In this document: in pieces, positions 4,453 through 57,709 of the stretch
Position numbering within the stretch: the first letter of the stretch is position 1
How the letters are laid out: the number at the start of each line of letters is the position of its first letter
Assembly (NCBI GenBank): GCA_016180435.1
Contig: JACPBG010000002.1
Coordinates: 144,682 to 208,681, forward strand
Length of the DNA: 64,000 bases
From: Candidatus Sungiibacteriota bacterium
GTDB lineage: Bacteria; Patescibacteriota; Minisyncoccia; Sungbacterales; HO2-52-23
Direction: 5' to 3'
The notes under the pieces: generated by a model
Databases searched by the model: none
Told to the model about the DNA's origin: nothing
What the model saw: only the letters and a program-made list of their open reading frames with translations
Made by a program: the position numbers and the translations under genes

Positions 4453-4603
4453 GTGTTTTTCTCGGCGGTTTTTTTGGTTGTGGGAATAGGTCGACAGGAG
4501 TCGGCGACGTTCTAACGGGGTAAACCATAATTCAATCTCTCTTTGCGTTATTCCTGTTGCCGTGTTAGGGTCGGGACAGAGTTCTTTTCATCGCGGTGTT
4601 TTT

Positions 4604-6898: not shown

Positions 6899-7150
6899 CC
6901 TGTGACCCCTACCGAGACGGGTCATGCGCCACAAGCGCTGGCCCGTCAAGGTAGCAGGGAAACGCGGATTCTGGCAAGATGTAACCCATCTTGTACTCGC
7001 AGTTTTGGAGAGAAATTCAAAGTATTTCCACGAGTCGCAAAACTCGTCACCACCACGTCATACCGGCTGAGCGCTCGCCTCGCTGAAGCTTGGCGCAGCG
7101 GGCCGTATTCAAGAACGAAAAGTCCGTCCTTCGACAAGCTCAGGGCGGCT
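6899..7150 (+). repeat. Noncoding element R1 (~240 nt), homologous to R2 at 17877..18120; a possible structured RNA or island-boundary repeat
   Basis: Shares CC(T/G)ACCGAGACGGGT (6908-6922 versus 17882-17896) and an exact 17-mer CCTTCGACAAGCTCAGG (7128-7144 versus 18099-18115) at nearly the same spacing (216 versus 213 nt). The interior is diverged but alignable. Overlapping small ORFs are in different frames in the two copies. Confidence 0.45.
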
Positions 7151-7223
7151 TTTCGTTTAAAAAATGGCCTTATACAATAAGTTGCCCTTGATTTTGAAAA
7201 GTGCTATTATGGCATTATTAAAC

Positions 7224-13037: not shown

Positions 13038-14516
13038 ATGTCCAACATCCAATCAGTCATCAAAAACATCCAAGATATCATGCGTAAAGACGCGGGCGTG
13101 GATGGCGACGCCCAGCGGCTCTCCCAGCTTGTCTGGATGCTTTTCCTGAAAATTTTTGATGACCAGGAGCGCGAGCGCGAGCTTATCAATCCCAAATATC
13201 GCTCACCCTTGCCCGAGGATCTCCGCTGGCGCAACTGGGCAGGCGACCCGGAAGGAATGACCGGCGACGGGCTTCTGGAATTCGTCAACAACAAGCTTTT
13301 CAAACGGCTGAAGGATTTGTCTTTTGACGAGAGCGAAGACCCTCGGGCTTTTATCGTTCGCGAGGTGTTTGCCGACAGCTACAACTATATGAAGTCCGGC
13401 ACCCTTATCCGGCAGGTCATTAACAAAATAAACGAAATTGATTTTAATAAAGCCGACGACCGTCACGCCTTCAACGACCTCTACGAACATCTGCTCAAAG
13501 AGCTCCAAAGCGCGGGCAACGCAGGGGAGTATTACACGCCCCGGCCGCTCACGCGTTTTGTGGTAGAGATGGTTTCCCCTAAACTTGGCGAAAAGGTGCT
13601 GGATCCGGCCTGCGGCACCGGCGGATTTTTGATTGACACTCTGGAATACATCCGTAAGCAGGAAATAAAAACCGCGGCGGATGAAAAGAAACTCCAAAGC
13701 CAAATACAAGGAGTAGAACTCAAGTCGCTACCATATTTATTAGCTACGACAAATATGATTTTGCACGGCGTGGACACGCCAAAGCATTTGCGCCATGGCG
13801 ACATGCTTTCCCAACCATTGCGGGAATATGGGCCGAAAGATCGCGTTGATGTGATTGTGGCCAATCCGCCATTTGGAGCCGATGTCAAAGATGGCATAGA
13901 GAAAAACTTTCCGACCGAATTCCGCACCCGCGAAACTGCCGACCTCTTTTTGGTACTTTTTATTCATCTTTTAAAACCAAACGGCCGCGCCGGCATCGTG
14001 CTTCCCGATGGCTCGCTTTTCGGCGAGGGCGTTAAAACCGCCATCAAGAAAAAACTCCTTGAAGAGTGCAATGTGCATACCATTGTCCGCCTGCCGCAAG
14101 GCGTGTTTAATCCGTACGCCGGAGTAAACACCAACCTAATTTTCTTCACCAAAGGCGAACCCACCAAAGAAATCTGGTACTACCAGCTTCCGCTCCCCGA
14201 AGGCGTCAAACAATACACCAAAAACCGCTGCATCACAGACGCAGATTTTGATCAAGTTAGAGAGTGGTGGAATAAAAGAAAGGATAATGCGCTTGCCCCG
14301 TTAGAGGCCGCGAGGGCTCGCAGCGTGTCTTCGCCTCTAATGGGGTGGAAAGTATCAATCAAACAAATCCAAGAACGAAACTACAATCTGGACTTCAAAA
14401 ACCCGAACGGCAATGCAAAACTCGTCCACAAAGACCCGAAAGAAGTTTTGGAGAGCATCGCCAAAACCGAATTCCACATTGCCAAAATTTTGGAGGAGAT
14501 AAAGAAAGAGATATGA
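13038..14516 (+). CDS. hsdM: Type I R-M N6-adenine DNA methyltransferase subunit
   Basis: SAM motif I VLDPACGTGGFL and motif IV VIVANPPFG. Contains an in-frame 50-nt palindromic repeat near its 3' end. Confidence 0.9.
   Translation: MSNIQSVIKNIQDIMRKDAGVDGDAQRLSQLVWMLFLKIFDDQERERELINPKYRSPLPEDLRWRNWAGDPEGMTGDGLLEFVNNKLFKRLKDLSFDESEDPRAFIVREVFADSYNYMKSGTLIRQVINKINEIDFNKADDRHAFNDLYEHLLKELQSAGNAGEYYTPRPLTRFVVEMVSPKLGEKVLDPACGTGGFLIDTLEYIRKQEIKTAADEKKLQSQIQGVELKSLPYLLATTNMILHGVDTPKHLRHGDMLSQPLREYGPKDRVDVIVANPPFGADVKDGIEKNFPTEFRTRETADLFLVLFIHLLKPNGRAGIVLPDGSLFGEGVKTAIKKKLLEECNVHTIVRLPQGVFNPYAGVNTNLIFFTKGEPTKEIWYYQLPLPEGVKQYTKNRCITDADFDQVREWWNKRKDNALAPLEAARARSVSSPLMGWKVSIKQIQERNYNLDFKNPNGNAKLVHKDPKEVLESIAKTEFHIAKILEEIKKEI
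14296..14345. repeat. Small palindromic element (CCCCGTTAGAGGC ... GCCTCTAATGGGG) lying inside the hsdM reading frame
   Basis: 13-nt inverted termini with one mismatch enclose a GC-rich core cgcgagggctcgcagcgtgtcttc. The termini match the CCCCGTTAGAG/CTCTAACGGGG family at 24074 and 49561. The hsdM frame stays open through it (peptide ALAPLEAARARSVSSPLMGW). Confidence 0.5.
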
Positions 14517-16019: not shown

Positions 16020-16526
16020 ATGCCCTACCCAACAAAAAAATTAGGAGAGAACATAGAAGACAAATCAAAAGATAGTAGAATTCTTTTTTCAATTTTAACT
16101 GGACGAAATTCGCATATATTGACTATCGTTATCGTTGGGCATTTGCTAACAGAACATCTTTTGGACAAAATTATTACTGCTAAATTTAAAAATAAGAGAA
16201 GTAACCCGAAGGAGAGTTTTTCACAAAAACTTGAGCTTCTTTATCCAATGTGGCTACCTCTATTTATTTATAAAAACATAAAACTTTTAAATGAAAGCAG
16301 AAATGACATAGCGCACAATTTGGGAAGTATTGATTATAAGCCGTTTATTTATACGCATCGGGGAGAAAAGAAAATTGTTAAAATTCCAAAAAGAAAAAAT
16401 GAAGAAAAGTTTTATTTCCGAGAACTTATCAATACCGTATTGTTTGATTTAGTAAATTATTCGTCTGATACTTTAGGTATTTCCAACGACATAGATTTAA
16501 ATATTATCTTTCGTCAGAAAAACTAA
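16020..16526 (+). CDS. Small HEPN-like (Rx4H) protein whose N-terminus duplicates the hsdS N-terminus; candidate partner of the RT
   Basis: ESRNDIAHN contains an R-x4-H HEPN-type motif. The first 10 codons (MPYPTKKLGE) and ~25 nt (ctacccaacaaaaaaa...ggaga) duplicate the hsdS start at 16528. Internal ATG in track ORF 15975..16526. Confidence 0.4.
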   Translation: MPYPTKKLGENIEDKSKDSRILFSILTGRNSHILTIVIVGHLLTEHLLDKIITAKFKNKRSNPKESFSQKLELLYPMWLPLFIYKNIKLLNESRNDIAHNLGSIDYKPFIYTHRGEKKIVKIPKRKNEEKFYFRELINTVLFDLVNYSSDTLGISNDIDLNIIFRQKN

Positions 16527-16527
16527 T

Positions 16528-17796
16528 ATGTCTACCTACCCAACAAAAAAACTCGGAGAAGTATTGGATTACGAACAACCCGGGAAGTATATCGTAAATT
16601 CCAAGAATTACAGTAACGACTATAAAACGCCGGTTTTAACAGCTGGTAAAACTTTTATATTGGGAAATACAGATGAAAAAGAAAACGTATTCCCATCTGA
16701 AAAGTTACCGGTAATAATTTTTGATGATTTTACTACTACTATAAAATTTGTTGATTTTCCCTTTAAGGTTAAGTCTTCGGCAATGAAGATTTTGCATGCT
16801 AAAAAAGGTGTAGCAGATATCAAATATTTATTTTATTTAATGCAAACCATAGAACTCAATCATGCAACGCATAAACGATATTGGATATCAGAATTTTCTC
16901 AATTAGAAATCCCTCTCCCGCCGCTTTCAGAGCAGAAGAAAATCGTGACGAGGTTGGAAGGGTTGCTGAAGAAAATTAAGGAGGCCAAGCGCTTGCGCGC
17001 CGAAGCGCAAGAAGCCGCCCAAAACCTCCTCCCCGCCGAACTCCACCGCATCTTCACTCAACAGGATTCTTATTCTCTAATTCGCGCGAATAAGCGAATA
17101 GTTGGAAAACTTACCACAACACACAAACAACATACTTACAAACTTGAGAATGTAAGGATGTTTAATAAGTCCGCCTCCGTTAAAACTTCGGCGGATAAAT
17201 GGGAAGAAAAAGAGTTGGGAGAAATTTGCGAATTGAATCCAAAAAAATCAGAAATAAAAGATAAGGCAGACGATTTTCTTGTTTCTTTTGTTCCAATGTC
17301 TGCTGTTGATGAATACTTGCAAGCGATCGTATTATTGCAGGAACGAAGTCTGGGTGAAGTGAGAAAGGGCTATACTTATTTTAAAAATGGCGATGTTTTG
17401 TTTGCAAAAATTACTCCGTGCATGGAAAATGGGAAAGTCGCTATCGCAAGGAATTTAAAAAACAGCATTGGTTTTGGCACTACGGAATTTCATGTTTTTC
17501 GGGCAAAAAAGAAAGTTTTGCCGGAATGGATTCATTATATTATCGGTCAGCCGTCTTTCCGGGAAATTGCCAAAACCAGAATGACCGGAAGTGCGGGACA
17601 AAAGCGAGTGCCAGTGCAATTTCTAGAAAAATTTAAAATCCCGCTCCCGCCCGTTGCGGAGCAGAAAAAAATCGTGTCGCGGCTGGACTCGCTTTCCGAA
17701 AAAATCAAAAACCTGCGAGAGTATCAGAAAGACACCAAGTCCAACATGCAAAACTTGGAGCGATCTATACTGTATAAAGCATTTGAGAGCAAATAG
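16528..17796 (+). CDS. hsdS: Type I R-M specificity subunit
   Basis: Two TRDs, each followed by the conserved coiled region (LPPLSEQKKIVTRLEGLLKKIKEAKRL and LPPVAEQKKIVSRLDSLSEKIKNLRE). Confidence 0.85.
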   Translation: MSTYPTKKLGEVLDYEQPGKYIVNSKNYSNDYKTPVLTAGKTFILGNTDEKENVFPSEKLPVIIFDDFTTTIKFVDFPFKVKSSAMKILHAKKGVADIKYLFYLMQTIELNHATHKRYWISEFSQLEIPLPPLSEQKKIVTRLEGLLKKIKEAKRLRAEAQEAAQNLLPAELHRIFTQQDSYSLIRANKRIVGKLTTTHKQHTYKLENVRMFNKSASVKTSADKWEEKELGEICELNPKKSEIKDKADDFLVSFVPMSAVDEYLQAIVLLQERSLGEVRKGYTYFKNGDVLFAKITPCMENGKVAIARNLKNSIGFGTTEFHVFRAKKKVLPEWIHYIIGQPSFREIAKTRMTGSAGQKRVPVQFLEKFKIPLPPVAEQKKIVSRLDSLSEKIKNLREYQKDTKSNMQNLERSILYKAFESK

Positions 17797-17876
17797 TCGT
17801 CACGCCCCCGATATTAAGAAACGGAACACGAGACACCCCTTTTATAGTGTTCCGTTTATCCCATTTTGTTCAAAAA

Positions 17877-18210
17877 TAGCCCCGACCGAGACGGGTTAGG
17901 GGAGTAGCAAAAGGAGAGTCAAAAAGGCCCTAAGATACCTTATAGGCGGTCGTTCCAGACCGAAGTGGCCAGCAGCTTTTGACTATGCGAACTCAAAATT
18001 TTCAAATGAGAGGGTTCTCTCAACCACAGACCGTCAAAATGCCAAAAAGTTATTCCATGAGCTTGTCGAAGGGCAACTTTTGGGCTTATATATGTATGCC
18101 TTCGACAAGCTCAGGCAATAAAATTATAGTTTTCGGACGGTCTGTACGCCTCAACAAAATTTTCCACGACTTTTTGGGTTCAAAGCAAATCGCTTGCGAG
18201 CGCAAAACGT
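17877..18210 (+). repeat. Noncoding element R2, homologous to R1; contains a perfect 14-bp hairpin and an outer 10-bp inverted repeat
   Basis: Shared end motifs with R1 (see R1). GAGCTTGTCGAAGG (18058-18071) pairs with CCTTCGACAAGCTC (18099-18112). ACAGACCGTC (~18028) pairs with GACGGTCTGT (~18135). The hsdS terminator hairpin AAACGGAACAC...GTGTTCCGTTT lies just upstream. Confidence 0.45.
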
Positions 18211-18246
18211 GTGTGGGCTAGTTATTATTTGGTATATACTTTATTT

Positions 18247-19104
18247 ATGGAAGAAGCTCCATTTTCGCCAGAAATTCAACCATATAAAAAACCCGTTGAA
18301 GTCGGCGACACCAATAAAATATATTACGATCCCAGTCATCCGGACGTTTTAATCCGCATACCAATAGATAAGGAATCCAAATTTCTTGAAACCAATCCTA
18401 AACTCATCGGAATTGCCGAGAAGATTTATCGTCGTCTCGATGAAATGGGAAAGAGTTTAGACATCGACGTAGCCGATCACCAATTTATTTTAGCGAAAGA
18501 GACGAGCGATGCTCCAGTCAAGCCGATGCTCCTCGCCAAGCGGATTGAGGGCAATCCGCTTGTACCTGTCGACAAAAATAATCTCAAAACTCTTGAAGCA
18601 TTAAGTCGCATTGCTCAACTTGGACATAAATATTTAAATTGGATTGAATCAAATCGACCAAAATCAGTAGTGACTGATGTATTTCGACCAGATCAATATA
18701 TTGCTCATCCCGGAGAAACAGAAGAAACGCATGACAAGCTAACGCTAGTCGACATTGAGCCAAGATTAAAAGATCGCGATCTAGGGATAAAATTTATTGA
18801 TCATGAACTTGGGATGTTAGTCGGCCCATTGCGTAACTCTGCGCATAACGATATTTTTAATTTGTACATGCACCACGCATTCCGTACGCTAAAGCGGAAC
18901 CGTCGCCGCATCGAAATAGGAAGTCTTATTAATATTATTGTTAAAGCACCAGAGTTATACCAACGGATGTCTGAAGATTTTTTAGCTGGCAGAGATACTA
19001 TTTTTACATCTCAGGAGCAACAGGAAATAAAAGATAGGCTACTCAACGCCCCACTGATTGTTAATCAAGAATTACTGAGAAAGTTTGGGATCGAAAAAAT
19101 TTAA
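18247..19104 (+). CDS. Hypothetical protein
   Basis: Long ORF with internal ATG (MEEAPFS) in track ORF 18211..19104. No recognisable motifs. Confidence 0.5.
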   Translation: MEEAPFSPEIQPYKKPVEVGDTNKIYYDPSHPDVLIRIPIDKESKFLETNPKLIGIAEKIYRRLDEMGKSLDIDVADHQFILAKETSDAPVKPMLLAKRIEGNPLVPVDKNNLKTLEALSRIAQLGHKYLNWIESNRPKSVVTDVFRPDQYIAHPGETEETHDKLTLVDIEPRLKDRDLGIKFIDHELGMLVGPLRNSAHNDIFNLYMHHAFRTLKRNRRRIEIGSLINIIVKAPELYQRMSEDFLAGRDTIFTSQEQQEIKDRLLNAPLIVNQELLRKFGIEKI

Positions 19105-19378
19105 GACCATTGCACAAATGAAAAGAATTTAAAGGCGGCGCGTTAGTTTTCAACTGGCACAAAATTCGGCGGAGGAACCCCAGAAGCAGAACGCTTTGCG
19201 TTTGCTACGGGGCAAGAAGCGAGGGCGGGCAAAAATTCCTTCCCCCCAACCCCCTTCTTTTTTGCCCGCCCGAGCAAAAATTATCAAAAGTCGGTGTCCG
19301 GATTTTCGCGAAAAAAAGTTCGGATTTTGTTCAAGACAGACAGATTTCTAGTGAGCCCTACCGAAAAGGGCAAAAACC

Positions 19379-20720: not shown

Positions 20721-22163
20721 ATGATTTGCATGAAAAAAATAAATTATTTAATTATTGGAGGCGGAATTGCCGGAACAACCGCCGCCGAAACCATTCGCCG
20801 CCATGATCCTGTGGGAAGTATGGCCATTGTGTCGGATGAGCCGTATCGCCTGTATTCGCGGATAATGCTTTCCAAGCCGAATTTTTTTCTGGAGAAAATT
20901 CCTTTTGACCAGATTTGGCTGAAAAAAGAGTCATGGTATGCGGAAAATAACATTCAGGTGATTCTTGGGAAAAGCGCCGTAAAACTTAACCCGCAGGCCA
21001 AGATAGTTACTTTAAATACCGGGGAAGAACTGGAATATGAAAAATTGCTTTTGGCAGTTGGCGGATGCGCCCGGCGCTGGGATCTTCCGGGAGCGGAGAG
21101 GCGCGGTATTTTTTATCTGCGAACATTGGACGACGCTAAAGCAATTATGACAGCGGTTAACCCCGTTAGAACGGATACTTCGCGATTGGCCGAAGGCGGC
21201 ATTGAATCACCACCTCTTATATCTGCCTTAACCGTCGACCCGCTTCGCCATAGCTTTAGCGAGGCGAGCAGGAGTAAGCGGCGTTCTAACGGGGTAAAAA
21301 CTGCCCGACATGCGGTGGCTATTGGCGGAGGTTTTGTCAGTTTTGAAATGTGCGACATGTTGCGTTTGGCCGGAATTGACGTAACATTGCTTTTGCGGGA
21401 ATCTTATTTTTGGGAGCCGGTTCTGGACGAGACATCGGGACGCATGATCGAGGCGGCACTGGAAAAAGGCGGCGTTAAGATTATGCGGAATACCGAGGTT
21501 GGCAAAATAATCGGCCAGGATCGGGTGGAGGCAGTTGAGATTAACGGCGGAAAAAAAATCGCTTGCGATATGTTGATAGTCGGGATCGGAGTTTTTTGTC
21601 CTTTGGCCTGGCTGGAGGTCGCCGGGGTAAAAGTGGGGCGGGGGATATTGGCTAACGAGTATTTGGAAATCAATTTTCCCTATATATGGGTTGCGGGGGA
21701 CGCGGCGGAATTCAAGGATTTGATACTTGGCGAGCAGATTCAGCTTGGAAATTGGGTGAACGCGCAGATGCAGGGCAGGATAGCGGGGATGAATATGTCT
21801 GGATCCCTCGACCCGCTTCGCCCGCAAAGCGAGGCGAGCAAGCTCAGGACAAGAAAGGAGCCATTTCGCATGGTTTCGTTTTATACCACGATTGGTTTTG
21901 GCATTACCATTGCATTTGTAGGGGATGTCCGGCCGATGGAGGGCCGGACCATAATTTTGCGCGGTTCGGCCGATGCCGGATCTTACGTCCGGGTCATTGT
22001 AAAAGGCGGAGAAATAATCGGCGCCACCCTGATAAATCGCACCCAGGAGCTTGGACCAATTTCCAAACTGATTGAAAAGGACTTTAAAATCGCGGGGCGC
22101 GAAAAAGAGCTTGCGGACACATCTTTTGATCTGAAAAAATTGATTGAGAATTTGAAATCATAA
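20721..22163 (+). CDS. FAD/NAD(P)-dependent pyridine-nucleotide-disulfide-type oxidoreductase carrying two in-frame repeat insertions
   Basis: FAD Rossmann YLIIGGGIAGTTAAETI; second Rossmann HAVAIGGGFVSFEMCDML; C-terminal GDAAEF. Between them lie atypical inserts NPVRTDTSRLAEGGIESPPLISALTVDPLRHSFSEASRSKRRSNGVKTAR and SLDPLRPQSEASKLRTRK, encoded by GC-rich repeats. Confidence 0.7.
   Translation: MICMKKINYLIIGGGIAGTTAAETIRRHDPVGSMAIVSDEPYRLYSRIMLSKPNFFLEKIPFDQIWLKKESWYAENNIQVILGKSAVKLNPQAKIVTLNTGEELEYEKLLLAVGGCARRWDLPGAERRGIFYLRTLDDAKAIMTAVNPVRTDTSRLAEGGIESPPLISALTVDPLRHSFSEASRSKRRSNGVKTARHAVAIGGGFVSFEMCDMLRLAGIDVTLLLRESYFWEPVLDETSGRMIEAALEKGGVKIMRNTEVGKIIGQDRVEAVEINGGKKIACDMLIVGIGVFCPLAWLEVAGVKVGRGILANEYLEINFPYIWVAGDAAEFKDLILGEQIQLGNWVNAQMQGRIAGMNMSGSLDPLRPQSEASKLRTRKEPFRMVSFYTTIGFGITIAFVGDVRPMEGRTIILRGSADAGSYVRVIVKGGEIIGATLINRTQELGPISKLIEKDFKIAGREKELADTSFDLKKLIENLKS
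21234..21295. repeat. GC-rich hairpin repeat (CGACCCGCTTCGCC...AGCGAGGCGAGCAGG) plus a TTCTAACGGGG half-site, inside the oxidoreductase CDS
   Basis: Shares CGACCCGCTTCGCC and AGCGAGGCGAGCA with the second copy at 21807-21843. gcgttctaacggggtaa also occurs at 4510 and 27718. Confidence 0.5.
21807..21843. repeat. Second copy of the GC-rich hairpin repeat inside the oxidoreductase CDS
   Basis: ctcgacccgcttcgcccgcaaagcgaggcgagcaagc is in frame and encodes a non-conserved 18-aa insert. Confidence 0.5.
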
Positions 22164-22170
22164 TAATTTT

Positions 22171-23397
22171 ATGACCCACAGAATTGATTCTAAACATTTG
22201 GATGCGATTATTATAGGAGCCGGACCCGCCGGAGGATCGGCGGCCAGGGAGCTTGCCAAACGAGGCAAGAAAGTTCTTTTAATTGAGCAATCGCATGAAA
22301 TTGGCGAGCCGAATTATTCAACAGCCGGGACCCCCAAGGAAACAGTTGAAGATTTTGATTTGCCCTCCGATATTCTTTCGTCCTCGTGGAATAAAATCAT
22401 GCTGGCTACGCCCCGGACGCAAGCTGTTTGGTCGTTTCCGGAGACGATGGGATATGTTCTTGATTTTGCCGGGCTTAAAAAATTTTTAGCCAAAGACGCA
22501 GCGGAAAACGGAGCGGAAATTTTGGTTGGGACTTCCGTAAAGGAGTTTATTGACGCCGGAGAAAAGATGATCGGCGTACGGTATCATGGTGTTTTCGGCG
22601 ACGGCGAAGCGTTGGCGGACGTTATTATAGATGCAACCGGACATCACGAGTTTTCCAACACATTATTGAAATTGAATCGCATTCAATCGGGTTCTTTGGC
22701 GCAAGCCATGGAGTATTTGATGACCAATCCACGCGCGCAGCTCAAAGACACTCTGGCCACATTTTGGGGGTCCGAGTATGCTCCCCATGGATATGCATGG
22801 TCTTTTCCGATGGATAACGGGAAAGAGGCCAAAGTTGGCATTTGCCAATATTCATATGATGAGAATAAAGGTGATCTTAAGAATTCGCTGGAACGGTTTG
22901 TGGATTCACTGCCTTATTTTAAAGAAATGGAACCGATCGAAATTCATGCCGGAGCAGCGCATGTAGACGGCGGCGTTGCGTGCCACATTTTCAAAAATGT
23001 AATGCTCATAGGAGATGCCGCTCACCAAATTAATCCGTTGGGAGGGGAGGGCATACGGCATTCGTTGCGGGCCGGACGTATTGCTGCTGATGCCATCGCA
23101 CGTTCTTTAGAAAATGGCGTTTGCGATCAATCTATGCTGAAACAAACATATGAATCAGAGTGGAAAAAGGAATTTGGCCGGGCTTGGCGCCTTTCCTATA
23201 TACTTAGCGGGATTTTATATAATCTGGAAGATGAATTATTGGATAAGCTGGTGAAAGTTATTGAAAGAATATTGCCTCAAGATATGTTTGAGATCGGGTT
23301 TCATTATGATTATTCCCGCGCGATGAAATATCCCGGGCTAATTTCTTTACTGCCGTCCGCTATAAAAAATTTTTTGAAAAAATGGCAGTCATTTTAA
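22171..23397 (+). CDS. Geranylgeranyl-reductase-family FAD-dependent oxidoreductase
   Basis: DAIIIGAGPAGGSAARELAKRGKKVLLIE (FAD binding) and GDAAHQINPLGGEGI (the GDAAG..P.tGEGI signature of the GG reductase family). Confidence 0.6.
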   Translation: MTHRIDSKHLDAIIIGAGPAGGSAARELAKRGKKVLLIEQSHEIGEPNYSTAGTPKETVEDFDLPSDILSSSWNKIMLATPRTQAVWSFPETMGYVLDFAGLKKFLAKDAAENGAEILVGTSVKEFIDAGEKMIGVRYHGVFGDGEALADVIIDATGHHEFSNTLLKLNRIQSGSLAQAMEYLMTNPRAQLKDTLATFWGSEYAPHGYAWSFPMDNGKEAKVGICQYSYDENKGDLKNSLERFVDSLPYFKEMEPIEIHAGAAHVDGGVACHIFKNVMLIGDAAHQINPLGGEGIRHSLRAGRIAADAIARSLENGVCDQSMLKQTYESEWKKEFGRAWRLSYILSGILYNLEDELLDKLVKVIERILPQDMFEIGFHYDYSRAMKYPGLISLLPSAIKNFLKKWQSF

Positions 23398-23612
23398 AAG
23401 ATGAGCAGATTACGGCTGAGGCGTTTTGTTTTATCAGCAATGGGAGGGCGAATAACGCTACAATAATAAACCTCCCACAAGCAAGCATATGGGCGGTTGA
23501 GGGTGTTTGATTTTAGACAATGGGAGATCCGCCAGAGGCGGATACAATAAGAAAAGGTAATATGTGTATTTTAGGCAAAAAACAATAGACCTTTTGCACA
23601 AGTTGGCAGACC

Positions 23613-23641
23613 TTGACGGATTTTGTGAGTGCGGCATACTA
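23613..23641 (+). promoter_or_regulatory. Sigma70-like promoter candidate (TTGACG-17nt-ATACTA) with a strong AAGGAGG RBS at 23662 ahead of the cytochrome c gene
   Basis: Hexamers with 17-nt spacing; Shine-Dalgarno aaggagggg lies 6 nt before the ATG at 23674. Confidence 0.3.
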
Positions 23642-23673
23642 AGATTAGTACCTAGTATATTAAGGAGGGGAAC

Positions 23674-24015
23674 ATGAAGGGCGTATTATTGATTATTGGT
23701 TTTCTGGCCGCAGTGTTGTTGTTTGCGGATAGGGGAATAGCCGCTGGTAAGCAGGATGGCAAGGCGCTTTATTCCGCAAAGTGTTCCGGCTGTCATGGCG
23801 CCGACGGCAAAGGAAACGCCGCTTTGGCTACTGCGCTAAGTGCGGATCCGGGAGCAATGGATTTGACCAAGAAAGATGTGAAGGATGTTAAAAAGCGTAG
23901 CAACCAGGATCTTTCCTGCGTTATCAAAAACGGCAAAGGTAAAATGCCGGCGGTGACAGGCCTAAGCGACGCTGAAATTACGGCAGTCATTAAGTATGTG
24001 CGTTCTTTGAAGTAA
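23674..24015 (+). CDS. Class I c-type cytochrome (mono-haem) with signal peptide
   Basis: Signal peptide MKGVLLIIGFLAAVLLFA. Haem motif CSGCH. Distal Met candidate in GKGKMPAV. Confidence 0.75.
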   Translation: MKGVLLIIGFLAAVLLFADRGIAAGKQDGKALYSAKCSGCHGADGKGNAALATALSADPGAMDLTKKDVKDVKKRSNQDLSCVIKNGKGKMPAVTGLSDAEITAVIKYVRSLK

Positions 24016-24073
24016 TCGATCACCATCTTTTTTATCATACCGCCGAATTTCGGCGGATTTTTTAGTGGGTGGA

Positions 24074-24174
24074 CCCCGTTAGAGATTTAACCAACGATAA
24101 AACATGGGTTACGAGTTATCCCGCAGTCAGGCATGCTCCTACCGGCGTAGTTTCGTTCCGCATCTCTAACGGGG
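24074..24174. repeat. MITE-like element with terminal inverted repeats CCCCGTTAGAGATTTA ... ATCTCTAACGGGG
   Basis: 13-nt perfect terminal inverted repeats enclosing ~75 nt. The same termini occur at 49561..49657, with variants at 14296, 38812 and 57156. Confidence 0.6.
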
Positions 24175-24264
24175 TGGATAAGTTTTGTTGTATTAGAATT
24201 ATATGTAGGTTATATTTAAAATATCAAGAAGGTCGAATAGTTATAAATAATCGGCACTTTAATT

Positions 24265-24666
24265 ATGACAAATCAAAAAATTATTGAGTGGGTGTTGCGG
24301 ATTGCGGTGGCCGGTGAATTCATTGGTCATGGCGCATTTGCCCTGCAAGGCAAAAAGGACTGGATCGGGTGGTTTGCCCAATTTGGGATTTCCGATGCCG
24401 GGACCGCCACGCAACTGCTTCTTCTTTTAGGAGCCGTAGATGTTGCATTAGGGATTTTAATTTTGATTAAACCGGTTCGCGTTGCGCTTCTGTGGATGGT
24501 ATTTTGGGGTTTCTGGACAGCGCTTTTGCGTCCGCTGGTTGGAATGCCGGTCTGGGATTTTGTGGAACGTTGGGCGAATTGGGGAGCGCCCCTGGCGCTT
24601 CTATTGCTTATCGGGTGGCCTAAGAGCTGGAGTGAATGGCTTTTTGATAATAAAGAAACAACGTAA
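24265..24666 (+). CDS. Small polytopic membrane protein (DoxX-like)
   Basis: Four predicted TM helices; LRIAVAGEFIGHGAFAL resembles the DoxX family. Stop overlaps the nrdD start (TAATG). Confidence 0.4.
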   Translation: MTNQKIIEWVLRIAVAGEFIGHGAFALQGKKDWIGWFAQFGISDAGTATQLLLLLGAVDVALGILILIKPVRVALLWMVFWGFWTALLRPLVGMPVWDFVERWANWGAPLALLLLIGWPKSWSEWLFDNKETT

Positions 24667-38810: not shown

Positions 38811-38811
38811 T

Positions 38812-39042
38812 CCCGTTAGAAGCCGCGATCGCATATCGGGATTTAAATACCGTTAAATATTTCGAGTTTAATATAAATAATAACAAAGCAGATTGTATTA
38901 GTTGATCGCGATCCCGGTACCACAAATCCTGTCGGATTTGGCTACGGGACAAGTATGATCAAAACAAAGATTATTTTAAGCATGTCTCGCCCCGTAGTCA
39001 CCAAGTGTACGAGGTGTACTATCGGGGTCTGCTTCTAACGGG
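38812..39042. repeat. MITE-like element (CCCGTTAGAAGCCGCGATCGC ... CTGCTTCTAACGGG) directly abutting the ATG of the 39043 gene
   Basis: The first 26 nt are identical to the copy at 57156. It ends ...tctgcttctaacggg immediately before the ATG at 39043, and carries a ~115-nt extra internal segment relative to the 57156 copy. Confidence 0.6.
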
Positions 39043-41970
39043 ATGAAGACCTTAATAACAGTAAATCGAAAATTATTGCTGGCCATCTTATTTTTAGTGA
39101 GCGTAGCATTTACCGAAGCCGGGGCGACTGCCAACGACTCTTCCATAACTCTTAAAAAACCCCCGGGCGCGGAACGATTTATTTTGACCATTAACGATCC
39201 TGATGGAATTCAGGAGTTTTCGCTTTCTCCGGCCGCGCAATTCCGTTACGGCGGAATGTTGAGCGGCTGCAATAAGTCATTTTCGATTAAGGATGTATCC
39301 TTCAATGACCCGGCTGATTTTACGCCCAAGATGCCTGCCTATGTTATTGATTGTCAGAACAATACTCTGGAGCTTGAAATTTTTACTCCGGTTAAAGGGA
39401 TAGCTAAAAGTGTTGCGGTAAAAAAAGAAGCTCCGGCGCCGTCCCCGACGCCTGTAGAGAATTTAGAACTTAGAACCGAGAACTTAGCAAAACTTCCCGA
39501 AAAAAAGGGGCCTTTGTTGGCCGAAGACATTCGGTATCCGGTGCCCGAATTGGGAAATTGCCAAAGCGAGGCCGAATGCCGTTCGTATTGCGATAATGTT
39601 AATCACGCTAAGGAGTGCCTGGCATTTGCCAAGAAATATAATCTGATTTCAGCAGGAGAAGCCCAGGAAGCGGCTGATAAATTCCTTAATGTTAAAAATG
39701 GCCCCGGCGGCTGCAATTCCTGGTCTTCTTGCGAAAATTATTGCAATTCAATTGATCATCTGGATGCATGTATTACTTTTGCCGAGGAGACCGGTTATTA
39801 TTCCGGCGATAAATTGGCCGAGGCCCGAAAATTTCAAGGCCTGATAAAATCCGGGGAGAAATTTCCCGGAGGATGCCGCGATCGGAACTCCTGTGAAATT
39901 TATTGCGGCGACCCCAATCATATGGAAGAATGTTTGGATTTTGCCGAAAAAAGCGGCTTTATGCCCAAAGAGGAAATAGCGGAGGCCAGAAAATTCATGG
40001 CTTTAATGCGTAAAGGCGAGAGCCCGGGCGGATGCACCTCCAAAGAACAATGTGAAAAATATTGTTTTGAAGAAGATCATATGAATGAGTGTATTGATTT
40101 CGGTCTGAAAGCGGGAGTTATGACCGAGGAGGAGGCAGTAATGGCCCGAAAAGTTGGAGGAAAAGGTCCGGGCGGATGCCGCAGTAAAACGCAATGCGAT
40201 GCGTATTGCGAAGAACATTCCGAGGAGTGCTTTAATTTTGCCAAGGAGCATGGATTGATGAGTGAAAAAGACCTGGAACGAATGAGCAAGGGAATGGAAC
40301 AGTTCCGCGCTAATCTTGAAAAAATGCCTCCGGAAGCAGTTCAGTGTCTTGAGGATGCTATCGGCGAAGAAAATTTTGAGAAAATCAAAAATGGACAGCC
40401 GATTTTTGATAGAAGCATGGAAGGAAAAATGAAATCCTGTTTTGGACGGATGAGCGCCGATTTCAGTAAAAAGTTAGAGAAGCTCCCGCCCCAAGCCACG
40501 CAATGCATTAAAGATGCGGTGGGGGAAGAAGGACTGCAAAAATTACAAAGCGGAGAATTCGGCGAAGATCTTAATTTTGAATCATTGGAAGGATGTTTTA
40601 AGGCATTGCAGCAATCGTTGGGCGGAGGAGGTAATTTTAGCAAAGGCGGATTTGAGGGCCCCGGCGGATGCAAAAGCATGGAAGAATGCGTAGAGTATTG
40701 TACTGCCCATCATGAGGAGTGTGCGGGTTTTAGTCCTCCGGGTGGAGGCGGCGGAGGATTTCAGCGGGGTGATGGAGGATTTCAGGGCGGTGGACCGGGA
40801 GGATGCAGGAGCGAGGAAGAATGCCGGTCTTATTGCGAGGAACATCCGGATGAATGTGGCGGCGGGGGCGGTATGGGCGGTGGCGGCAGTAATGGTGTAA
40901 ATACGGGCGGTGGATTTAACGGACCCGGCGGCTGCGCTTCTATAGAGGGATGCATCGTATATTGCCGATCGCATACGGAAGATCGCGAATGCCGGGCTTA
41001 TACAGGCGGCGGAGAAGGGGGCGCGGGTTTTTCCGGTCCGGGCGGCTGTGCATCCATAGAGGATTGCGTGAGATATTGCCAAGCGCATTTTCAAGATCAA
41101 GAGTGCCAAGCCTACATAGGAGGCGGTGGCGGCGGGGGAGGAAACATTGGCGGCAATTCGCCAAGTTGCGCTCCGGCGCCTTTGGGCTTAGTCAGTTGGT
41201 GGAAAGGGGAATCAAGCGCGCAAGACAGTGCTGACGGAAATAGCGGAGCTCTTTCCGGAGGAGCTGGTTTTGCTGATGACGGAAAAGTCGGGAAGGCGTT
41301 TAAATTTAATAAAGGCAGCGTCAATATCGGAAATCCCGCTAATCTGAATTTCGGGACCGGGCCATTTTCTTTGGAGGCCTGGTTTCGCTGGGACGGCGGA
41401 GAAGGCGTAAATAATATCATCCGAAAATCAAACTATCCTTCCAGCGGCCCCGGATCGGGATATTGGTTCAGGGTAGGCAATGGAACCCTGGAATTTTCGA
41501 TTGGAGAAACTACCCAATCCGAAGGCCAGACCATTATTACCGCGCCCGTGGCTTCCGGAGTTTGGCATTATGCCGTTGGCACGAAAGATGATTCCGGCGG
41601 CGTTAAGTTATATGTGGATGGCGAGTCCCGGGGAACTATCCTGCGGTCTGCTCCCGGTACGCAATCAACAAGTGATGATCAGTTTACACTCGGATCATGG
41701 CGGGCGAGCTCCGAATTTTTTTCCGGCCTGATCGATGAGGTTTCCGTATATAACCGAGCGCTTAACGCGTCAGAAGTCCAGGCCATTTTCAATGCGGGTA
41801 ATGCGGGTAAATGCTCTGTTCAGTCAAGTCCCGCGCCAATTCCTCCGCCCGGCGGCCAAATCCCTCCGGAATATTGTTCATATTTTACAGCCGTACCAAG
41901 TTGTTCCTATGTTGGTCCGGCGGGATCGCAAGATTATAATTACTGCAAGCAGTGTTTTCCGGATAAATAA
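39043..41970 (+). CDS. Secreted Cys-rich repeat protein (8x ~45-aa C4H modules), Gly-rich spacers, C-terminal concanavalin/LamG-like domain
   Basis: Signal peptide MKTLITVNRKLLLAILFLVSVAFTEA. Repeats GPGGCNSWSSCENYCNSIDHLDACITFAEETGY, PGGCRDRNSCEIYCGDPNHMEECLDFAEKSGF and others. GGGG runs. C-terminal LIDEVSVYNRALNASEVQAIF fits Laminin_G_3. Confidence 0.7.
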   Translation: MKTLITVNRKLLLAILFLVSVAFTEAGATANDSSITLKKPPGAERFILTINDPDGIQEFSLSPAAQFRYGGMLSGCNKSFSIKDVSFNDPADFTPKMPAYVIDCQNNTLELEIFTPVKGIAKSVAVKKEAPAPSPTPVENLELRTENLAKLPEKKGPLLAEDIRYPVPELGNCQSEAECRSYCDNVNHAKECLAFAKKYNLISAGEAQEAADKFLNVKNGPGGCNSWSSCENYCNSIDHLDACITFAEETGYYSGDKLAEARKFQGLIKSGEKFPGGCRDRNSCEIYCGDPNHMEECLDFAEKSGFMPKEEIAEARKFMALMRKGESPGGCTSKEQCEKYCFEEDHMNECIDFGLKAGVMTEEEAVMARKVGGKGPGGCRSKTQCDAYCEEHSEECFNFAKEHGLMSEKDLERMSKGMEQFRANLEKMPPEAVQCLEDAIGEENFEKIKNGQPIFDRSMEGKMKSCFGRMSADFSKKLEKLPPQATQCIKDAVGEEGLQKLQSGEFGEDLNFESLEGCFKALQQSLGGGGNFSKGGFEGPGGCKSMEECVEYCTAHHEECAGFSPPGGGGGGFQRGDGGFQGGGPGGCRSEEECRSYCEEHPDECGGGGGMGGGGSNGVNTGGGFNGPGGCASIEGCIVYCRSHTEDRECRAYTGGGEGGAGFSGPGGCASIEDCVRYCQAHFQDQECQAYIGGGGGGGGNIGGNSPSCAPAPLGLVSWWKGESSAQDSADGNSGALSGGAGFADDGKVGKAFKFNKGSVNIGNPANLNFGTGPFSLEAWFRWDGGEGVNNIIRKSNYPSSGPGSGYWFRVGNGTLEFSIGETTQSEGQTIITAPVASGVWHYAVGTKDDSGGVKLYVDGESRGTILRSAPGTQSTSDDQFTLGSWRASSEFFSGLIDEVSVYNRALNASEVQAIFNAGNAGKCSVQSSPAPIPPPGGQIPPEYCSYFTAVPSCSYVGPAGSQDYNYCKQCFPDK

Positions 41971-49560: not shown

Positions 49561-49657
49561 CCCCGTTAGAGATTTATAGAATATCGAACCCAGTTAAGAA
49601 AAAAATCATATTTTCATCTATATAGTTGGGTCTTGTCGCTCCATATCTCTAACGGGG
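49561..49657. repeat. MITE-like element with terminal inverted repeats CCCCGTTAGAGATTTA ... ATATCTCTAACGGGG
   Basis: Terminal inverted repeats identical to the copy at 24074..24174. AT-rich interior. Lies between the terminators of the giant gene and the 3' end of the minus-strand gene 49675..50187. Confidence 0.6.
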
Positions 49658-57150: not shown

Positions 57151-57155
57151 TGAAT

Positions 57156-57271
57156 CCCGTTAGAAGCCGCGATCGCATATCAAGATATAAAAATCATTGT
57201 GAATTACCAATTAAATATAAATTATAAACATAGTAAATCGCATCAATTGATCGCGATCTGCTTCTAACGGG
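57156..57271. repeat. MITE-like element (CCCGTTAGAAGCCGCGATCGC ... GATCGCGATCTGCTTCTAACGGG) directly abutting the ATG of the cupredoxin gene
   Basis: ~21-nt terminal inverted repeats. Same family as 38812..39042, with 26/26 identity at the 5' end. Ends immediately before the ATG at 57272. Confidence 0.6.
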
Positions 57272-57709
57272 ATGAATAAATACGCCATCTTAATTATAAT
57301 AGGTGTCCTGATTATCGGTTTCGGTGTTTTTTACCGCGCGTTTTTGTTGTCGGATGAGGCCAAGCCGGTAACAACCGGAAAAGTTCGCGAAGTGACAATC
57401 ATCGCCAAAAAAAACGAATGGCGGTTTGTGCCGGAAGTTATTGAAGCCGAGCGCGGGGATAAGATTGTGATAACCGCGGTGAATGAGGATGATTATGACC
57501 ACGGGATTGCCATTGACGCTTTTGGGCAATCCCAAAGAATGCCGGCGCGTTCCACCATAAAAATGGAATTTGTAGTAACCCAGGAAGGGGAGTTCCCGTT
57601 TTATTGCTCGGTGCCTTGCGGAGAAGGGGATGTGGACGGGAAACATAGGACCCATTTTGATATGATAGGGAAGTTGGATGTAAAAAGTGTGGTGAGTTCA
57701 ACGCAGTGA
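57272..57709 (+). CDS. Membrane-anchored cupredoxin-domain protein with a CuA-like ligand pattern
   Basis: N-terminal TM YAILIIIGVLIIGFGVFY. C-terminal FYCSVPCGEGDVDGKHRTHFDM fits C-x3-C-G-x-H-x2-M as in CuA/COX2-type cupredoxins; an upstream His lies in DDYDHGIAID. Confidence 0.55.
   Translation: MNKYAILIIIGVLIIGFGVFYRAFLLSDEAKPVTTGKVREVTIIAKKNEWRFVPEVIEAERGDKIVITAVNEDDYDHGIAIDAFGQSQRMPARSTIKMEFVVTQEGEFPFYCSVPCGEGDVDGKHRTHFDMIGKLDVKSVVSSTQ

Follow-up and report, generated by a model that had tools for sequence, protein, structure and literature searches.

A reductase gene with two nested repeat inserts

The window analysed in this study is a 64-kb stretch of DNA, and the gene of interest is located at 20721..22163 on its + strand. 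The source is a MAG of Candidatus Sungbacteria, a CPR bacterium with a tiny genome, and the encoded protein is a 100% match to a Candidatus Sungbacteria protein; it has 480 aa when counted from the first ATG and 477 aa in the NCBI protein (P0001). Pfam assigned PF07992 (E 3e-50), PF00070 and PF14759 to it, and the scan returned only oxidoreductase families. Four small repeats lie inside the gene as two nested pairs, all of them in frame:

20721..22163, + strand: host CDS, a FAD oxidoreductase of the Pyr_redox_2 / ferredoxin-rubredoxin-reductase type (Pfam, orthologue match, Foldseek)
21161..21294, + strand: insert 1, a MITE-like element of 134 nt with terminal inverted repeats (TIR pair; absent from orthologues P0002-P0004)
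21157..21173, + strand: left flank TTAA and left terminal inverted repeat CCCCGTTAGAACG
21240..21269, + strand: unit C copy 1, 30 nt (CCGCTTCGCC ATAGCTTT AGCGAGGCGAGC), read as PLRHSFSEAS
21282..21298, + strand: right terminal inverted repeat CGTTCTAACGGGG and right flank TAAA
21804..21851, + strand: insert 2, 48 nt (16 aa), motif B split by unit C copy 2
21804-21812 and 21840-21851, + strand: the two halves of motif B, TCCCTCGAC and AAGCTCAGGACA
21813..21839, + strand: unit C copy 2, 27 nt (CCGCTTCGCC CGCAA AGCGAGGCGAGC), read as PLRPQSEAS

The original prediction had described two copies of a hairpin-prone repeat within this CDS; both are present, at 21240-21269 and 21813-21839, and neither insert breaks the frame of the ORF. 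The added segments, put at about 50 and about 18 aa, are there at somewhat smaller sizes: measured against the nearest orthologues, insert 1 with its 4-bp flank adds 138 nt or 46 aa (V146-G191), and insert 2 adds 16 aa. That the inserts derive from repeats was borne out, but their description as GC hairpins proved incomplete. About 104 of the 134 nt of insert 1 are a TIR element, in which the 30-nt unit C is a nested passenger. Insert 2, taken for a simple GC hairpin, is a 21-nt motif B, found in 13 other orthologues, with a nested 27-nt unit C. The supposed TTCTAACGGGG half-site belongs to a 17-nt inverted-repeat pair (21157-21173 / 21282-21298, 94% complementarity), of which it forms one arm.

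Insert 1 is flanked by TTAA and TAAA, which match as a direct repeat at 3/4 positions, the left one being a degenerate copy of the TAAA target. Within it, unit C copy 1 sits after GTCGAC in an internal hairpin loop; the solo end at 4490-4522 and the consensus of the TIR family have the uninterrupted GAC|AG(G)AGT at this spot. Motif B is a GC-rich hairpin motif, TCCCTCGAC|AAGCTCAGGACA, with the general form TCCYTCGAC AAGCTCAGGACA. In orthologue P0025, site 2 reads TCC TTC GAC AAG CTC AGG ACA, which is motif B without unit C, and in P0003 and P0016 this site is empty (GGA|AAA). Examples of sequences that cross the insert junctions are TVDPLRHSFSEASR, LTVDPLRHSFSEASR and SLDPLRPQSEASK, and GCGGTAAAAAC is an example of the direct join expected at an insert-free allele.

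Orthologues, selection and structure of the host protein

Alignment of orthologues agreed with the view that the loops are additions. The nearest orthologues, P0002-P0004 (82% identity), lack both inserts, and the DNA of the empty sites is seen in them. A homologous insert is found at the same codon of site 1 in P0016, a 63%-identical orthologue from another sample, motif B extends site 2 by 7 aa in 13/114 orthologues, and a composite of TIR element and unit C resembling insert 1 is present in P0135. Other short inserts occur at site 1 of P0005, P0007, P0026, P0041, P0046 and P0047. The carriers are scattered phylogenetically, and the nearest relatives of each are without the insert.

Purifying selection acts on the host gene (dN/dS 0.10 against P0003) despite its four repeat elements. 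The AF2 model of the protein has a mean pLDDT of 89.7 and matches the solved ferredoxin reductases 3lxd, 9li3 and 3fg2, of ∼405 aa, with Foldseek TM scores (target-normalised) of 0.91-0.92. Insert 1 lies immediately upstream of the NAD-binding GGGFVSFE motif, and insert 2 after helix 345-361 and before the Reductase_C domain. Residues 154-187 in insert 1 have pLDDT <50, so this region is predicted to be disordered, and residues 361-380 around insert 2 have pLDDT ∼70. The model supports an intact two-Rossmann reductase fold in which both inserts are low-confidence loops.

Insert 1 belongs to a dispersed family of TIR elements

The family is recognised by terminal inverted repeats of 12-17 nt (CCCCGTTAGAAC...GTTCTAACGGGG). 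The window has 16 occurrences of their core, TCTAACGG, where 1.4 would be expected, and it contains six complete copies (insert 1 and five others) and about five solo ends, including:

14296..14345, + strand: mini TIR element, 50 nt (CCCCGTTAGAGGC...GCCTCTAATGGGG), in frame in hsdM (13038..14516)
24074..24174, unstranded: TIR element, 101 nt, intergenic, flanks TGGA/TGGA
38811..39043, unstranded: TIR element, 233 nt, TCCCGTTAGAAG subfamily, right end adjoining the ATG of ORF 39043..41970
49561..49657, unstranded: TIR element, 97 nt, intergenic, flanks TTTG/TTTG
57155..57272, unstranded: TIR element, 118 nt, TCCCGTTAGAAG subfamily, flanks TGAA/TGAA, right end adjoining the ATG of ORF 57272..57709
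4490..4522, + strand: solo right TIR end (GTCGACAGGAGTCGGCGACGTTCTAACGGGGT), intergenic
27703-27733 and 33746-33761: further solo TIR ends, similar to 4490..4522

These elements span 50-233 nt and have no coding capacity of their own. The palindrome in hsdM, previously likened to the GC hairpin of the host gene, is a member of the TIR family instead, and the region of HsdM that holds it aligns to HsdM 3ufb with gaps. The TCTAACGG at 6834-6841 is part of the D-arm of tRNA-Gln; we took it for ordinary tRNA sequence and did not count it as a member.

A scan of representative genomes gave 17 loci, which come from six CPR lineages (Saccharibacteria, Parcubacteria, Levyi-, Sungii-, Wolfe- and Moraniibacteria) and from Nitrospirota and Gammaproteobacteria MAGs. 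In other CPR genomes, 11 family members align to insert 1, whose internal hairpins have decayed. A 13-nt TIR is invariant across 12 aligned copies, and a 12-nt TIR is unchanged from Saccharibacteria to Nitrospirota. Of 26 elements, 14 lie between perfect 4-bp direct repeats, where chance would give 1/256 for each. In the core subfamily, TAAA is found on both flanks in 10/12 aligned copies, and the right flank reads T-A/G-A-A in 12/12, with a single orientation throughout. Elsewhere, copies are in frame in a second oxidoreductase (L008), in Mur-ligase-like, DeoR-HTH, bPH_2 and PAP2 proteins and, with the host family judged by eye, in a PBP-like (L004) and a glycosyltransferase-like protein (L016); the matches in oxidoreductases all lie within GCGGTAAA (3/3). 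For the encoded peptide, an exhaustive HMMER search was effective, whereas the word-indexed protein search was too coarse, its 49-aa profile giving one match and a 73-aa query of the peptide with its flanks giving none.

RNAalifold of 12 family members found only the invariant terminal stem, with no covariation or compensatory change, so there is no case for a structured RNA. Several other identities of the TIR were rejected: an integron attC core (GTTRRRY/RYYYAAC) is unfit in core order and sequence, a promoter would need another spacing of the hexamers, and an archaeal-type BHB intron does not suit a bacterial host. Among the ten window ORFs scanned with Pfam and the Pfam lists for three sub-regions, there was no transposase or RAYT-like gene, no Y1_Tnp family and no autonomous IS with the same TIRs. 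Since these parts of the window hold no such gene, we infer mobility only from the distribution of the copies.

Unit C and motif B recur outside the host gene

Unit C is a hairpin with an 8-bp stem and a conserved T·G mismatch. The pattern CGCTTCGC-N(3-14)-GCGAGGCG is found twice in the window, against 0.00 expected from 100 shuffles, and TCGAC stands directly 5' of both copies 1 and 2. A third, variant copy and further copies of motif B lie elsewhere in the window:

7073..7101, - strand: unit C copy 3, 29 nt (CCGCTGCGCC AAGCTTC AGCGAGGCGAGC), intergenic, within an outer stem downstream of tRNA-Gln
7118..7155, + strand: terminator-like hairpin with motif B (TTCGACAAGCTCAGG) as its loop, then a T-run
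18056..18115, unstranded: motif B copies as an inverted pair, intergenic

The search for further copies was also rewarded in metagenomes, where more than 120 loci have exact arms and four (L044, L105, L122, L134) carry a unit C identical to copy 1. In contrast, the hairpin at 19219-19275, once thought akin to the repeat, is a different long-loop stem and gave no match in a fuzzy search for unit C. Lengths of 30 nt (81/122) and 27 nt (16/122) dominate, and the copy number is low, with three in the 64-kb window and usually one per metagenome contig. In the metagenome loci, unit C sits mostly at the tip of another hairpin, and its own flanks are more complementary than mismatched flank pairs (p 6e-5). 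The 5' flank has the consensus C-C-S-R-C, with C at -1 in 92/96, and the 3' flank is weak.

Long ORFs hold 43 to 45 of the 122 copies (35-37%), the higher count requiring an open frame of at least 60 aa on each side, a state found at 50% of random positions. The ten host ORFs that were checked with Pfam, which come from uncultured bacteria, encode LeuRS (three), ThrRS, LigA, RecG, RNR, DnaG, PMT and a PAS/HAMP sensor. Relative to host genes, the two orientations are equally used (21 vs 22), and all six frames are read. The even split between orientations excludes a strand-specific RNA signal. As for the hairpin-prone nature of the repeats, isolated 35-38-nt strands of copies 1 and 2 have only a small folding advantage over shuffles (z -1.1 to -1.7), but whole insert 1 has a large one (z -4.8), with a long terminal stem that joins both of its ends.

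At gathering thresholds, Rfam found only tRNA-Gln in the whole window. A literature search on the TIR sequence, the arms of unit C, the encoded peptides and the themes of MITEs in CPR and of GC hairpins gave nothing relevant. The TIR element, motif B and unit C are without a match in Rfam or in the published work searched.

Comparison with known repeats

In its small non-coding size, terminal inverted repeats, target-site duplications and multiple dispersed copies, the TIR family has the properties of MITEs. MITEs have reportedly been found in coding sequence, both as the QMITEs of Coxiella burnetii and in a review of MITEs. The family resembles Coxiella QMITEs and the Correia elements of Neisseria in size, TIRs, target duplications and copies per genome, and further in its solo ends, its copies beside gene starts and its occasional in-frame coding insertions. 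It differs from them in its fixed orientation within an asymmetric target and in the wide range over which its 12-nt TIR is invariant, and it stands without an assigned parent insertion sequence. In AT-rich organelle genomes (yeast mitochondrial, Allomyces, sponge, placozoan), mobile GC clusters or hairpins are short GC-rich palindromes that spread in AT-richer surroundings and can be in frame in protein genes; the placozoan mitochondrial hairpins are said to be described in a paper. The elements reported here differ in their bacterial host, their sequences and their nested architecture.

Rickettsia palindromic elements (RPEs) are repeats of ∼100-150 nt that are found in intergenic DNA and in frame in functional genes of a reduced-genome host, are translated as extra surface segments and have no known associated transposase (PMC3733652). 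The elements in our window are like them in being palindromic repeats in frame in functional protein genes, a likeness of behaviour only. We regard the sequences as unrelated, and the hosts are Rickettsia in one case and a CPR bacterium in the other. RPEs also differ from our elements in that the latter have TIRs, 4-bp flanking duplications, an RTAAA target, a family spread over several phyla and a second, nested mini-element. RPE-4 and RPE-6 are CGTC-tagged REPs (PMC3733652), whereas the elements here are untagged.

Unit C is a repeated imperfect palindrome within the 20-40 nt of REPs, and it resembles REPs and REPINs in being GC-rich and dispersed, in having a conserved mismatch and in being often nested in the tips of palindromes. 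A parallel is offered by the GTAG-23 REPs of Thermomicrobium roseum, which are nested in CCGSSCC(n3-4)GGSSCGG palindromes, and REPs within ORFs have also been documented (PMC3733652). REPs are defined by a GTAG/CGTC tag (PMC3733652), but the top strand of unit C starts with CCGC and ends with GAGC, and neither strand has a tag. Nor is unit C extragenic as REPs are, with up to 37% of the copies being intragenic. It differs further in its low copy number, its dominant 30/27-nt lengths, its lack of a linked RAYT and its occurrence in CPR and groundwater metagenomes. IS200/IS605-derived PATEs insert 3' of a fixed tetra- or pentanucleotide, do not duplicate the target and have subterminal hairpins at both ends. 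When compared with them, unit C is a single hairpin without separate left and right ends, and its conserved 5' flank and weak 3' flank fit a one-sided recognition of the target.

A model for the growth of the loops, and its alternatives

We consider it likely that three kinds of small selfish DNA repeat have settled in the host gene, where they would be translated as tolerated surface loops. This is based on the observed nesting, the TIRs with their direct repeats, the many copies, the absence from the nearest orthologues, the location in loops and the purifying selection on the host gene. A non-coding transposon remnant of ∼100 nt, MITE-like and with 12-17-nt TIRs and 4-bp target duplications, would have entered the gene, the main subfamily being one that inserts into RTAAA in a fixed orientation. 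Its target here would have been GCG|GTAAA|A, the Ala-Val-Lys codons ahead of the NAD-binding Rossmann motif. Motif B would have been placed in the loop after helix 345-361, and the REP-like unit C would then have joined the tip of each earlier element, on the 3' side of TCGAC, a pentanucleotide of CCSRC type. This order of events is suggested by the nesting; the composite of TIR element and unit C may instead have transposed as one piece, since a similar composite is found in P0135. Because every layer is 3n long and keeps the host frame free of stops, the ribosome would read straight through, and the 46 and 16 added residues would form disordered or loosely structured surface loops on an intact FAD/NAD fold. 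The TIR element would have been moved at the DNA level by a transposase acting in trans, possibly, as we presume from the 'CC' ends and the 4-bp duplication, of the IS1380 type. Against this, a fixed orientation in the asymmetric RTAAA is unusual for a DDE transposon with symmetric TIRs. Unit C would have been inserted as a single-stranded hairpin by an enzyme like REP/RAYT or IS200/IS605.

We would tentatively go further, to a proposal that may well prove wrong. Unit C, and perhaps motif B, could represent an undescribed class of ultra-small 27/30-nt mobile hairpin, harmless in coding sequence by virtue of its 3n length and of arms that are stop-free in six frames. By inserting at hairpin tips 3' of CCSRC, it could be spreading in essential genes of CPR (aminoacyl-tRNA synthetases, ligase, primase, RNR) and piling up as Russian-doll inserts by which protein loops grow longer. 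If true, protein loops in minimal genomes would have a general way of growing that is still in operation.

Orthologues do share segments at both positions, the finding that the original prediction had named as speaking for ancestral loops. One might therefore regard the loops as ancestral or lineage-specific low-complexity segments to which DNA elsewhere is similar by coincidence. The insert of P0016, the 7-aa extensions at site 2 and the indel-prone nature of both sites in this family are in favour. It is nonetheless very improbable that this is the explanation. The repeat origin stands because the carriers are scattered (as the identity data also suggest), their nearest relatives lack the segments, and the same DNA occurs in intergenic regions and in unrelated genes: the DNA of site 1, with its perfect 13-17-nt TIRs, aligns over its length to elements from other phyla that lie in unrelated genes and in intergenic DNA, and exact copies of motif B and unit C turn up in intergenic hairpins and in more than 120 unrelated contigs. 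The same-codon insert in P0016 and motif B at one site in scattered lineages could also have come about by recombination or by precise loss on several occasions. An assembly artefact, with chimeric joins at repeats, has even less to recommend it and is barely credible. A Logan contig of the same organism does break within unit C copy 1 (at 21246), and others end 15-30 nt from a TIR solo end (50991) or a full element (57155). However, the reading frame and the reductase homology run across both inserts, the same architecture is found in P0016, and an independent Logan contig (L143, from another SRA run and recorded in 8 samples) has 0 mismatches to the window over 21246-38328, a span that includes the right third of insert 1 and the whole of insert 2 and so confirms unit C copy 2.

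The terminal stem that brings the ends of insert 1 together, and the intervening sequences for which the rRNA genes of CPR bacteria are known, could point to removal of the inserts after transcription or translation, as a mini-intron, an RNase-processed stem, a bypass or an intein-like segment. We give this little credence. Self-splicing introns and inteins were rejected, as a relaxed Rfam search of 21100-21900 (E up to 10) gave no match, no intein or Hint family was among the Pfam families of the host protein, and lengths of 27-138 nt are far below those of group I/II introns or inteins. Moreover, all in-frame copies that were checked are 3n long without a stop in the host frame, which is predicted by translation but needless for splicing. 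Retention of the inserts for a useful role, exapted as new interaction loops of the reductase or as regulatory hairpins in the mRNA, is unlikely, yet has more to be said for it. Purifying selection persists in a gene with four elements, the TIR element is found in three oxidoreductases of the family, and the hydrogenase neighbours of the orthologues have been lost beside the window gene, so that the partner proteins of the enzyme may have changed. On the other hand, the reading frame of unit C varies over all six from host to host, which leaves no conserved peptide; the internal hairpins of the window TIR copy have decayed; its region is predicted to be disordered; and the preference for GCGGTAAA accounts for repeated insertion into oxidoreductases without selection. 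Colonisation by selfish repeats thus remains the reading that we favour.

The small, streamlined genomes of CPR/Patescibacteria are commonly regarded as poor in mobile DNA. Here, one 1.4-kb gene of housekeeping type contains four nested repeat insertions and stays under purifying selection. If the elements are mobile, they would be a source of protein-loop expansion in CPR genomes and would probably account for contig breaks in assemblies and for odd low-complexity segments and spurious ORFs in metagenomic protein sets, and the repeats would offer a handle on the enzyme that moves them. The preference for RTAAA would also explain why distant orthologues can have 'parallel' insertions at one codon, a pattern that might otherwise pass for shared ancestry.

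Two in-frame insertions in an FAD oxidoreductase

The product of ORF 20721..22163 (+), a 480-aa Pyr_redox_2 protein that also has Pyr_redox and Reductase_C domains, is identical to P0001, an NCBI protein from a Candidatus Sungbacteria MAG. Alignment to solved ferredoxin reductases leaves residues ~146-194 and 365-381 unmatched, and both segments are absent from P0002-P0004, the closest orthologues at 411 aa and 82% identity in the aligned columns. Insert 1 adds 138 nt (46 aa) and insert 2 adds 48 nt (16 aa), and the reading frame is kept in both, so that the extra in-frame loops of the original prediction are borne out. The GC-rich repeat it described is also present, with CGACCCGCTTCGCC / AGCGAGGCGAGCA exact at 21236/21258 and at 21809/21828; the window has two occurrences of the pattern CGCTTCGC-N(3-14)-GCGAGGCG (0.00 expected).

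AlphaFold2, given an alignment of 115 sequences, produced a model with a mean pLDDT of 89.7, falling below 50 at residues 154-187 and to near 70 at 361-380. Foldseek gave target-normalised TM scores of 0.88-0.92 to ferredoxin and putidaredoxin reductases of ~400-420 residues. The model suggests that the reductase fold is complete and that both inserts are excursions from it. The dN/dS of the oxidoreductase is 0.10 against P0003 (dS 1.07). Independent Logan contigs are identical to the window across 21246-38328; one of them stops within the first unit C copy and others end ~15-30 nt from TIR-family copies (solo end 50991, element 57155), as is expected of repeats.

Insert 1 belongs to a dispersed inverted-repeat family

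Insert 1 is bounded by a 17-nt terminal inverted repeat (TIR), TTAACCCCGTTAGAACG (21157-21173) and CGTTCTAACGGGGTAAA (21282-21298). The half-site described in the first copy is therefore one arm of this pair. In the window, 8 sites match the 14-mer AACCCCGTTAGAAC at <=2 mismatches (0.33 expected), and 16 match its core TCTAACGG (1.4 expected). These matches pair into further complete elements and a 50-nt mini version.

TIR-family features in the window
24074-24174: complete TIR element, from paired TIR matches
49561-49657: complete TIR element, from paired TIR matches
38811-39043: complete TIR element of a sister subfamily (TCCCGTTAGAAG), from paired TIR matches
57155-57272: complete TIR element of the same sister subfamily, from paired TIR matches
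14296-14345: 50-nt mini TIR element, in frame inside hsdM (13038..14516), TIR core CCCCGTTAGAGGC...GCCTCTAATGGGG
~4509, 27720, 33748: solo right TIR ends, unpaired matches

The mini element reads in frame as APLEAARARSVSSPLMG, the second in-frame TIR-family copy of the window, and the alignment of this hsdM region to the solved HsdM 3ufb is gapped. Both sister-subfamily elements end exactly at the ATG of downstream ORFs, with CTTCTAACGGG-ATG-AA in each; they may supply the start codon, ribosome-binding region or promoter of a 975-aa protein and a cupredoxin-like protein.

When one genome per species was scanned, 17 loci matched CCCCGTTAGAAC-N(65-95)-GTTCTAACGGGG, in MAGs of Saccharibacteria, Parcubacteria, Levyibacteriota, Sungiibacteriota, Wolfebacteria, Moraniibacteriota, Nitrospirota and Gammaproteobacteria. 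The elements span 79-105 nt, and perfect 4-bp flanking direct repeats (e.g. TAAA, TAGA, TGAA, TTGA, TGGA, TTTG) are found in 14 of the 26 elements called. Terminal inverted repeats, small size and 4-bp flanking repeats are MITE hallmarks. Twelve copies of a conserved-core subfamily align end to end with 78% mean column identity: those at the fetched loci L003, L004, L006, L009 and L018, the reverse complements of L008, L013, L016, L017 and L019, and the copies in the P0016 gene and the window. When these are oriented by internal sequence, TAAA stands on both flanks in 10/12, the right flank reads T-A/G-A-A in 12/12, and a purine (G or A) precedes the left repeat, so that the element enters RTAAA in one orientation.

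RNAalifold found only an invariant terminal stem with no compensatory changes, and Rfam gave no match for the element. A structured-RNA reading was therefore set aside and the element treated as DNA. We searched a profile of the element-encoded peptide, xPVRTGASRLADGSI..PSAIS..TADRSRRRSNGV, exhaustively against 1.84 billion representative proteins (E up to 1e-3). Of 30 matches, 17 are single full-length or near-full-length stretches. Longer proteins with the peptide inside include Mur-ligase-like, DeoR-HTH, bPH_2 membrane, PAP2 and 23S_rRNA_IVP proteins, and several have no Pfam family. Genome loci added a PBP-like and a glycosyltransferase-like host, with families judged by eye.

Unit C is nested in both inserts

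When 21240-21269 is removed, the window copy is collinear with the TIR family (104 nt). The corresponding segment of the family consensus is an internal hairpin, CGCCGAC-AGA-GTCGGCG; at this place the 4490 solo end runs on as GTCGAC|AGGAGT, and the window copy reads GTCGAC[CCGCTTCGCCATAGCTTTAGCGAGGCGAGC]AGGAGT. Unit C, here a 30-nt GC hairpin, is therefore a passenger in the loop of the element's own hairpin. P0135, an unrelated 290-aa DeoR-HTH protein, has an in-frame TIR element at residues 146-191 with a unit-C-like peptide (...SSDPLRLGHSEISRSRRSSNGV; DPLRLGHSEIS) at the internal position where the window copy has its own, so the composite may have spread as one unit; P0135 would fit a composite subfamily, or else a hotspot within the TIR element. 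In the LeuRS of L097, unit C sits in a GTCATCCCCGC...GCGGGGATCCAG hairpin (read VIPA...AGIQ) at residues ~408-430, inside the editing domain, so that here too an essential gene carries three nested layers.

Site 2 is empty in P0003 and P0016 (GGA|AAA). P0025 reads AGT TCC TTC GAC AAG CTC AGG ACA AGA there, and the window reads GGA TCC CTC GAC [27 nt] AAG CTC AGG ACA AGA. Insert 2 is therefore a 21-nt motif B (TTCGACAAGCTCAGG) split by a 27-nt unit C, again directly after TCGAC. The 0.93 Mb of fetched DNA contains 10 copies of motif B, each closed by short variable GC stems. Among the intergenic copies, the one at 7130 forms the loop of a terminator-like hairpin that follows tRNA-Gln, and those at 18056-18069 and 18102-18115 are an inverted pair. 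In the tRNA-Gln region (6824-7160), two adjacent strong hairpins follow the tRNA (DNA fold z -3.6); one is a unit C variant enclosed by an outer stem, and the next has motif B as its loop, a terminator-like stem and a T-run.

Shared sites and their origin

The original prediction held that homologous segments in orthologues would make the loops ancestral. Such segments do exist, but ancestry does not follow from them. At site 1, P0016 (63% identity over aligned columns) carries a 104-nt TIR copy at the identical codon (GCG|GTAAG CCCC...GGGG TAAA|AAC). A Sungiibacteriota genome adds a third copy (L008), in a paralogue of 29% identity, on the opposite strand and ~16 residues upstream. All three insertion sites read GCGGTAAA, and target preference is a simple explanation for the shared site. 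Recombination or repeated precise loss is a possible source of the shared insert; the window and P0016 copies have no obvious shared derived substitutions, and independent hits are favoured. At site 2, a 7-aa extension occurs in 13 of 114 orthologues, and in several of them it reads S(L/F/I)D(K/E)L(G/R)T. Its carriers are scattered: for the window protein, P0021 (neighbour at 85%), P0025 and P0027 alike, the closest relatives are without the extension.

The P0025 gene (L020:4440-4600) has a different 45-aa GC-rich insert, placed a few codons downstream of site 1, with CAGGCGGGCAGGC-type short repeats (…GQALAPGPWPLAPGRAGGQAGRRAGGQALAGQA…). The site-1 loop appears to be a hotspot for several unrelated repeat insertions.

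Unit C across metagenomes

At least 120 loci in JGI/ENA metagenomes, many from 0.1-µm groundwater fractions, match CCGCTKCGCC-N(3-12)-AGCGAGGCGAGC. Among the matches listed, unit C is 30 nt long in 81/122 and 27 nt in 16/122, with RRAGCTTC or CGCGA in most loops. Its flanks vary by locus and tend to be mutual inverted repeats, as in CCTGCCTGCCGGC|unit|AGGCAGG, GTCATTCCCGC|unit|GAAAGCGGGAATC and CCTTCGAC|unit|A(A)GGCTCAGGA; own flanks pair at -10.65 kcal/mol against -8.08 for mismatched flanks (p 6e-5). Of the two flanks, the 5' one is conserved (C at -1 in 92/96, G/A at -2, consensus CCSRC) and the 3' one only weakly so.

In the same listed matches, 45 of 122 units have an ORF running on for 60 aa or more to either side, against 50% of random 30-nt windows in the same loci; unit C is thus mildly depleted in genes, not excluded from them. 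Intragenic units take both orientations (21 vs 22) and all six frames, giving peptides such as PLRRSxSEAS, RFAxAxARR, ASPELQRGE, ARLAEAxAKR, SPRFxxGEA and LASLKLxRS. A length divisible by three is found in 89% of the units inside genes and in 77% of those between genes, so this is a property of the family and not only of survivors. Pfam identified ten hosts: LeuRS (three, two at the same linker), ThrRS, LigA, RecG, class II RNR, DnaG, PMT and a PAS/HAMP sensor, with unit C mostly in inter-domain linkers. Pfam also finds a NUDIX domain inside one CPR LeuRS (L034) and an intein with a LAGLIDADG domain in the DnaG primase (L037), two genes that are among the unit C carriers.

Possible mechanism and relation to known elements

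Nesting, terminal inverted repeats with duplications, dispersal, target motifs, location in loops and tolerance by selection are all observed. The TIR element would move by cut-and-paste or copy-in transposition, with a transposase acting in trans; its 'CC' ends and 4-bp duplication may point to IS1380-type elements. No mobilising gene was found in the ten window ORFs and three sub-regions examined with Pfam. Unit C may enter exposed hairpin tips 3' of CCSRC as a single-stranded hairpin, in a REP/RAYT- or IS200/IS605-like manner. We suggest this because REPs nest in small GC palindromes (CCGSSCC n3-4 GGSSCGG, Thermomicrobium roseum) and also lie inside ORFs (PMC3733652). Unit C is not filed as a REP, since the defining GTAG/CGTC tag is missing.

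The inserts behave most like Rickettsia RPEs and coding-region MITEs/REPs, and in this sense are a known kind of thing. The TIR element, motif B and unit C had no match in Rfam or in the literature searched. New are the CPR host group, the three sequence families, the oriented RTAAA target and the two-level nesting, together with the repeated in-frame presence of a 27/30-nt hairpin in essential genes across many uncultured bacteria.

Other features of the window

The hairpin at 19219-19275, predicted to be similar, is not related to unit C. It has a perfect 13-bp stem (GGGCGGGCAAAAA / TTTTTGCCCGCCC) and a 23-nt C-rich loop, lies downstream of ORF 18211..19104, and was not called as a terminator by a simple terminator scan. 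The 400-nt intergenic region 17800-18210, which contains the motif B inverted pair and other GC-rich segments, had no Rfam match; a decayed element or a non-coding RNA may lie there. Upstream of the oxidoreductase, at 9536-17796, is a complete type I restriction-modification locus (hsdR, a DUF4325 protein, hsdM, hsdS). In the orthologous loci L002 and L021, NiFe-hydrogenase small and large subunit genes (Oxidored_q6, NiFeSe_Hases) come next, whereas in the window the next gene (22171-23397) encodes a geranylgeranyl-reductase-like FAD protein, so the partners of the oxidoreductase may differ here.
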